A stretch of DNA of 64,000 nt from the NCBI RefSeq assembly GCF_024502345.1, contig NZ_JALDNN010000001.1; one strand, written 5' to 3'. This DNA is from Escherichia coli (GTDB lineage: Bacteria > Pseudomonadota > Gammaproteobacteria > Enterobacterales > Enterobacteriaceae). Below the pieces are notes generated by a model. The model was given only the letters and a program-made list of their open reading frames with translations. It searched no databases and was not told the origin of the DNA. The translations under genes were made by a program, and so were the position numbers. Below, in pieces: positions 37,333 through 38,130 of this stretch (positions are counted from its first letter, which is position 1; each line of letters opens with the position of its first letter).

Positions 37333-38082
37333 AACTTGCTCCTTAGCCGTTATCGTTTCGAACATGTCATCCTTTTCATTATTTACATCCTTGTCCGAAT
37401 CGTTGTTCAATATAGTAAACGCCTATAAGAACTTTGCCCTTCGTGAACTAATACGTCTATTAACACTAATCAATACTTCAGATTTATCCATCACGCACTC
37501 CATATATTGATCCTAAGTAAGATCCCTGGTTGTTATCAGCTTGTAAATAGTAAACAAAAAGTTAACGTTTGCGGATTACTGCCCAAGAATAAGTTATCAA
37601 TAACCAGTTTGTGATCTCTGAAGAATATTACTAAAGTTAAAATGTAATCCGATTTAAATATCGAGTCTCCTTGTTTCGACTTAAGCTGGCAATTGGATTG
37701 CCAGCTTTCTTTTAACGCATTGAAATTACCTGAGTAAATAACGCATTCATGTCTTCAGGTTTTTATATAGCGTCTGGAGACATGGATATTTATGCAATGT
37801 AATCAACGCCAGTTGCAAAAAAATGAACCCGGATTACTTATTTAACCGCCCATAGCATCAACGCTTACGGAACTCTTTGTTCACTTTCCCACAGCACTTT
37901 TAAAACATTAAACCTGACTACGGAAAATATCAGCCATGATAATGTTTGAAATGGCTAATTTGCCATGGAGTGAAAAAAATTAGATGAAATTCAGTAGGTT
38001 GAAATAATCACTAGCAGGTAATTATTTCAATGATAGTGCGCAATTGATCTACAACACTGCGTAGCGGAGAGAGTATTAATCG

Positions 38083-38115
38083 GATCATAGTCACATCAAG
38101 TGACTATGATCCGGG
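38083..38115 (-). terminator. Terminator downstream of hdeD
   Basis: ggatcatagtcac-atcaa-gtgactatgatcc perfect hairpin. Confidence 0.55.
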
Positions 38116-38130
38116 TGACAACCGGGATAA

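Follow-up and report, generated by a model that had tools for sequence, protein, structure and literature searches.

ArrS, a small regulatory RNA of Escherichia coli K-12, is encoded antisense to the longest transcript of gadE, and low pH induces it by way of sigma-S and GadE (PMC6755755). Its expression in K-12 is induced by acid and by stationary phase, dependent on sigma-S and GadE (PMC6755755, PMC12266141). Overexpression of ArrS leads to higher acid survival, and deletion of the chromosomal arrS gives no acid-survival phenotype (PMC6755755), leaving the physiological weight of ArrS uncertain. ArrS was found by RIL-seq to be an Hfq-associated sRNA that acts both in cis and in trans (PMC5145812). 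In trans, the 5' end of ArrS pairs with the 5' UTR of cfa and masks an RNase E site, resulting in activation of cfa; this pairing was proven by the compensatory mutations ArrS C7G and cfa G101C, with C7 being essential (PMC6755755). In cis, overexpression of ArrS converts the gadE transcript T3 into the more stable T2 mRNA, although direct evidence for an ArrS-guided cleavage is lacking according to the same study (PMC6872547). A transcriptome-wide study revealed an RNase III cleavage site within ArrS (PMC6212723), and the ArrS-promoted processing of T3 to a stable T2-like mRNA has been linked to RNase III (PMC6872547, PMC6212723, PMC8708148). In addition, ArrS represses fepA in a manner that needs Hfq, RNase E and the loop of the 3' hairpin, which was named the ArrS intrinsic (Rho-independent) terminator and mutated in its loop, the loop mutant losing repression (PMC11979758). 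Northern blotting of plasmid-expressed ArrS in that work showed the plus-strand RNA (PMC11979758). No papers reporting ArrS in Term-seq 3'-end data were found in a literature search.

The gene lies in the 798-bp spacer between hdeD and gadE, termed the "sensory integration region", at which more than 10 regulators act (PMC3708157). Transcripts of gadE start at -21, -124 (T1), -324/-317 (T2) and -566 (T3) (PMC3708157). H-NS/StpA silence this region, whose occupancy peaks include arrSp (PMC12266141).

Several other sRNAs share one or another of these properties. Similar to ArrS, GadY is a cis-antisense, Hfq-binding small RNA directed against an untranslated region of the mRNA of a gad regulator, and is encoded in the same acid fitness island. 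GadY overlaps the 3' UTR of gadX and not a 5' UTR. The two sequences are unrelated, and GadY has its own Rfam family (RF00122) whereas ArrS has none. RydC and ArrS bind overlapping sites in the cfa 5' UTR, and both RNAs activate cfa by masking the RNase E site; however, RydC is not cis-antisense and is unrelated to ArrS in sequence, and a rydC deletion is acid-sensitive whereas an arrS deletion is not (PMC6755755). SdsR and RseX carry 3' terminator modules comparable in function, as their terminator loops are also required to repress fepA via its far-upstream 5' UTR with the help of Hfq and RNase E, but these sRNAs are unrelated to ArrS and possess other loops; no direct pairing with fepA was detected (PMC11979758).

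The DNA analysed here is a stretch of 64,000 nucleotides of a non-K-12 E. coli, referred to as the window, in which the acid fitness island runs in reverse orientation compared with K-12. The open reading frames together with the K-12 annotation give the gene order mdtF-mdtE-gadE-(arrS)-hdeD (Table 1). The hdeD-gadE spacer has the same length as that of K-12 and differs from MG1655 by 7 SNPs, none of them inside arrS; the records nearest to it, at 99.9% identity, include the strains XH990 and O157:H16 Santai, and 5413 of 5426 complete E. coli genomes contain the spacer. With its 798 bp and a G+C content of 36.2%, compared with 49.1% for the window, the region upstream of gadE is long and AT-rich, as the initial annotation states. 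The same region had been described as a leader of about 800 bp. That length holds for the upstream region, but the leader itself comprises only 566 nt, and the other ~232 bp are promoter DNA. Placed on the window by means of the gadE ATG (37332-37330), the published start sites fall at 37353, 37456 (T1), 37656/37649 (T2) and 37898 (T3) (PMC3708157).

Comparison with K-12 revealed that the arrS gene (b4704, NC_000913.3 3657985-3658054, minus strand) is identical over 70/70 bases to positions 37644-37713 on the plus strand of the window. In NC_000913.3 it is annotated as an ncRNA gene, "small regulatory RNA ArrS", between hdeD and gadE on the strand opposite to gadE. The suggestion that an antisense transcript such as ArrS ends here is thus supported by the alignment with the published sequence, since the hairpin ends the matching 70-nt gene and K-12 arrS maps to this place and not elsewhere. 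Relative to the gadE ATG (A = 37332), arrS spans -312 to -381 and so falls within the T3 leader of 566 nt (positions after PMC3708157). The 70-nt sequence, the position and strand relative to gadE, the terminator hairpin and the U-tract are all the same as in K-12; no change was found within the gene, and the host and the SNPs outside arrS are the only differences. The 5' end of ArrS, GUAAUCCG, which would provide the cfa-pairing seed, is also that of K-12 and is invariant in all Escherichia lineages compared.

Table 1. Features of the hdeD-gadE region and neighbouring genes, in positions of the window.
Feature	Position	Strand	Basis
mdtF	32171-35284	-	
mdtE	35309-36466	-	
gadE coding sequence, 175 aa, gene regulated in cis	36805-37332	-	ORF list; matching RefSeq records annotate gadE
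hdeD-gadE intergenic "sensory integration region", 798 bp	37333-38130		K-12 comparison; PMC3708157
Longest gadE 5' UTR (T3, start -566)	37333-37898	-	PMC3708157 positions mapped on the window
Proposed arrS promoter: -35 TTGTGA (37610-37615), 16-nt spacer, C37631, -10 TAAAGT (37632-37637)	37610-37637	+	Sequence and alignment
arrS, 70-nt small regulatory RNA, antisense to the gadE T3 5' UTR	37644-37713	+	70/70 K-12 match; Escherichia conservation
ArrS-complementary part of the gadE T3 leader, with mirror hairpin (loop CCA) and T2 5' ends	37644-37713	-	PMC3708157; folding
ArrS terminator stem-loop, 11-bp stem, loop UGG	37683-37707	+	Sequence, folding, stem conservation; loop need shown (PMC11979758)
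U-tract TCTTTT closing ArrS	37708-37713	+	Direct reading; end of the K-12 arrS annotation
hdeD	38131-38703	-	

No match was obtained in 37333-38130 when positions 30000-46000 were scanned against Rfam 15 at E <= 1. The silence at the spacer reflects that Rfam 15 has no ArrS family, and is therefore no argument against the identity of the gene. Apart from records with IS or transposon insertions, the RefSeq records examined besides K-12 MG1655 carry no annotated feature in the spacer. Elsewhere in the window, GadY was found at full length at 30724-30837 on the minus strand (RF00122, 150 bits, E = 2e-32). The equivalent of gadF, an sRNA from the gadE 3' UTR, lies at 36616-36706 (minus strand) with 1 mismatch compared with K-12, and its 3' 72 nt (36616-36687) are matched by the Rfam family ES205 (RF02754, 101 bits), indicating that Rfam covers GadF under another name, but not ArrS. 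A partial naRNA4/CssrE match at 43755-43787 (minus strand) reached only 31 bits versus a gathering score of 59.5, which is typical of a REP-like palindromic element.

The final 31 nt of arrS (37683-37713) consist of a hairpin followed by the U-tract. On the plus strand, a perfect inverted repeat with the arms AAGCTGGCAAT (left, 37683-37693) and ATTGCCAGCTT (right, 37697-37707) around the loop TGG (37694-37696) folds into a stem of 11 perfect pairs, 5 of which are G-C. TCTTTT comes directly after the stem and extends to 37713, and together with the last two stem bases T37706 and T37707 the U-tract makes up the run TTTCTTTT. The ArrS 3' end thus carries all parts of a Rho-independent terminator, namely an 11-bp stem, the loop UGG and UCUUUU. 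The letters given in the initial annotation, agctggcaat-tggat-tgccagct and then ttctttt, are indeed present on the plus strand, at 37684-37713; the approximate coordinates of 37691-37720 were about 7 nt too far to the right, and the arms and loop were divided slightly differently from the actual fold, the sequence itself being right.

The isolated hairpin RNA has a folding energy of -15.5 kcal/mol compared with -6.0 ± 2.1 kcal/mol for dinucleotide shuffles (z = -4.6), and none of 200 shuffles equalled it. The whole 70-nt ArrS unit folds with -20.2 kcal/mol (z = -3.8). Under a Markov-1 null with the composition of the spacer itself, only 0.016 terminator-like sites with a stem of at least 9 bp are expected per 798 bp on both strands, and the whole 64-kb window contains only about 8 distinct terminator-like sites of comparable quality. 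These results confirm that the hairpin is real and not a product of chance. We conclude with high confidence that it is the Rho-independent terminator of arrS, the 70-nt sRNA gene in the hdeD-gadE spacer of the acid fitness island.

A sigma-S-like element was found upstream of the gene. The hexamer TAAAGT (37632-37637) ends 6 nt upstream of the annotated arrS start G37644, and every Escherichia species aligned retains both the T-A-x-x-x-T pattern and the C at -13. A C at -13 is a hallmark of sigma-S promoters. We propose the sequence C-TAAAGT (37631-37637) as the candidate -10 element of arrS, which fits the reported sigma-S dependence (PMC6755755). The adjacent TAAAAT (37638-37643) was rejected as a -10 element because it directly borders the annotated start and lacks conservation in E69, E. 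whittamii and E1V33. Scanning the spacer for the GAD-box consensus yielded at best 12-13 of 20 positions, which is at background level, and at best 12/20 near the arrS promoter. The same scan recovered as a positive control an exact 20/20 consensus, TTAGGATTTTGTTATTTAAA, at 28016-28035 on the plus strand, presumably the box of the gadA promoter. A generic sigma-70 scan found no site at arrS, and its counts, not above those of shuffles, have little bearing on a sigma-S promoter.

On the opposite strand, the two T2 5' ends at -317 (37649) and -324 (37656) fall within the ArrS:T3 duplex, opposite to nucleotides 6 and 13 of ArrS. Such a location would agree with T2 arising, at least in part, by cleavage. 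The end at -317 could instead be a primary start, as a -10-like GATATT lies on the minus strand at 37662-37657.

Conservation was examined by a GadE-based scan with one genome per species, covering E. albertii, E. whittamii, Escherichia sp. E1V33, sp. MOD1-EC7003 and two divergent species representatives named E. coli. In all lineages recovered, arrS is 94-100% identical. In the four lineages that are more distant (E. albertii, E. whittamii, E1V33 and E69), identity from the U-tract to the T3 start (37714-37898) amounts to 38-48%, with the 35-nt bins directly 3' of the U-tract going down to 9-40%, and it rises again around the T3 promoter (37893-37962). As conservation drops right after the U-tract, its boundary coincides with the 3' end of ArrS. 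The stem retains its full 11 pairs in each of 6 distinct Escherichia sequences; 10 pairs are invariant and one changes from A-U to G-U (A37684G). No covariation was seen in the stem among these 6 sequences, as it hardly varies. In these alignments, arrS is a sharply bounded conserved island in the Escherichia lineages, accompanied by a conserved sigma-S-type -10, and this is the part of the analysis that is new.

In the same four lineages, the part of the T3 leader that immediately precedes the ArrS target (37714-37860) could not be aligned with that of E. coli, and the spacer there is shorter by an estimated ~55-80 bp. The "sensory integration region" is therefore lineage-specific in its upstream half. 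HdeD of these lineages is alignable only over the first 173 of 190 residues.

Variants of the locus were also observed within E. coli. Two strains (NZ_CP015832.1 and NZ_CM169496.1) carry IS1 insertions in the gadE leader, at the equivalents of window positions 37371-37379 and ~37455-37472, one insertion lying between the ATG and the T1 start and the other around the T1 start. In both strains arrS is undamaged but gadE is cut off from its upstream promoters, and acid resistance could change in consequence. Strain 3059 (NZ_CP103559.1) has a deletion with a remnant of a Tn3-family transposase, its junction being equivalent to 37899; the loss takes in gadE and arrS and reaches as far as the T3 start, and the hdeD-proximal 232 bp are left beside a truncated decarboxylase gene. 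Outside the genus, hdeD, arrS and gadE were found on NZ_JAUFQN010000010.1, labelled Flavobacterium paronense CECT 8460, with arrS 100% and the spacer 98-99% identical, and the 466-bp contig NZ_JARVKW010000110.1, labelled Streptomyces sp. DH24, contains only a fragment of an E. coli-type gadE. Both contigs are almost certainly Escherichia contamination of the respective assemblies.

Another inverted repeat is present at the hdeD end of the spacer. It consists of 14 bp without mismatch, CGGATCATAGTCAC and GTGACTATGATCCG, around a 5-nt loop at 38081-38113, and on the minus strand it is found 18-50 nt past the hdeD stop; a further small hairpin occupies 38110-38126. This repeat is probably a structure of the hdeD 3' end, though no clear U-tract follows it.

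The 11-bp repeat at the end of arrS could in principle serve other purposes than termination, and three such explanations were weighed, all of which are much less likely because the hairpin exactly matches an sRNA that has been studied. It might act mainly on the minus strand, as an element controlling the stability, processing or attenuation of the gadE T3 leader, with the plus-strand terminator being incidental. The minus-strand hairpin is just as stable (-16.0 kcal/mol, z = -5.5) and sits in the T3 5' UTR, whose processing gives T2 (PMC6872547). However, the stem on this strand is followed by AAGUCGA and not by a U-tract, the RNA that was seen experimentally is the plus-strand one and ends at the U-tract, and the abrupt loss of conservation past this U-tract fits a plus-strand unit, so that we regard a mainly minus-strand role as very unlikely. 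A bidirectional terminator or an attenuator of gadE T3 was likewise rejected, the minus strand having no U-tract. A function in the T3 leader would complement that of ArrS and does not exclude it, and antisense pairing could nucleate at the mirror loops, UGG and CCA.

We consider it highly improbable that the 11-bp palindrome serves a dimeric transcription factor as DNA operator, acting on gadE P2 or arrS, instead of forming an RNA structure. The palindrome is perfect and invariant across species, and lies in a region bound by more than 10 regulators (PMC3708157) with dense protein occupancy (PMC12266141), but none of the cited papers assigns a regulator to it. The T-tract and the annotated 3' end account fully for the palindrome. 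A G+C-rich stem followed by a run of U is the standard signature of an intrinsic terminator. The remaining explanation, a functionless chance occurrence in an AT-rich spacer, has next to no probability. A simple terminator scan did reveal other weak terminator-like sites nearby (5 found versus 1.5 expected), whereas sites with such a long stem and a T-tract are expected at only 0.016 per spacer, the sequence is identical to that of an annotated and experimentally studied sRNA, and it is conserved across Escherichia species when the flanking DNA is not. The exact arrS match together with the conservation pattern rules out a chance hairpin.

Based on the assignment of the hairpin as the arrS terminator, we propose a mechanism for the locus, for which identity, position, structure and conservation were computed here, and expression, regulation and targets were taken from the literature. 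Transcription of ArrS would start at G37644, run away from gadE and stop at the U-tract after the 11-bp stem. According to the literature, the promoter would depend on sigma-S and GadE and would be induced by acid and stationary phase. Because of its location at -312 to -381, ArrS is perfectly complementary to the longest gadE mRNA (T3, start -566). Upon pairing, the conversion of T3 to a shorter, more stable T2-like mRNA would be promoted, linked to RNase III as in the published work, and the T2 5' ends opposite to nucleotides 6 and 13 of ArrS may mark cleavage in the duplex. As described in the literature, processing of T3 would raise the GadE level and acid resistance and would create a positive feedback, with GadE activating arrS and the gadE mRNA being stabilised by ArrS. 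In trans, Hfq-bound ArrS would activate cfa through its 5' end, and the loop of the terminator hairpin would be required for fepA repression.

All 25 nt of the hairpin including the loop are nearly invariant across Escherichia, with the single change A37684G, and the DNA 3' of the U-tract has been replaced. It is possible, though we rate it as doubtful, that the hairpin is itself a selected module, acting either by a kissing-loop with its T3 mirror (CCA versus UGG) that directs processing or as a loop that recruits an RNA or protein partner behind the repression of fepA. Such a functional module, if true, would be of moderate interest only.

The 798-bp gadE control region and ArrS with its terminator are already known and published, and the present analysis adds little to the biology of the locus. 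The comparison across Escherichia lends modest support to the annotated boundaries of arrS and to its control by sigma-S. The practical point is one of annotation: a real sRNA was re-identified from sequence alone at a locus where automated pipelines skip arrS, as Rfam 15 holds no family for it.
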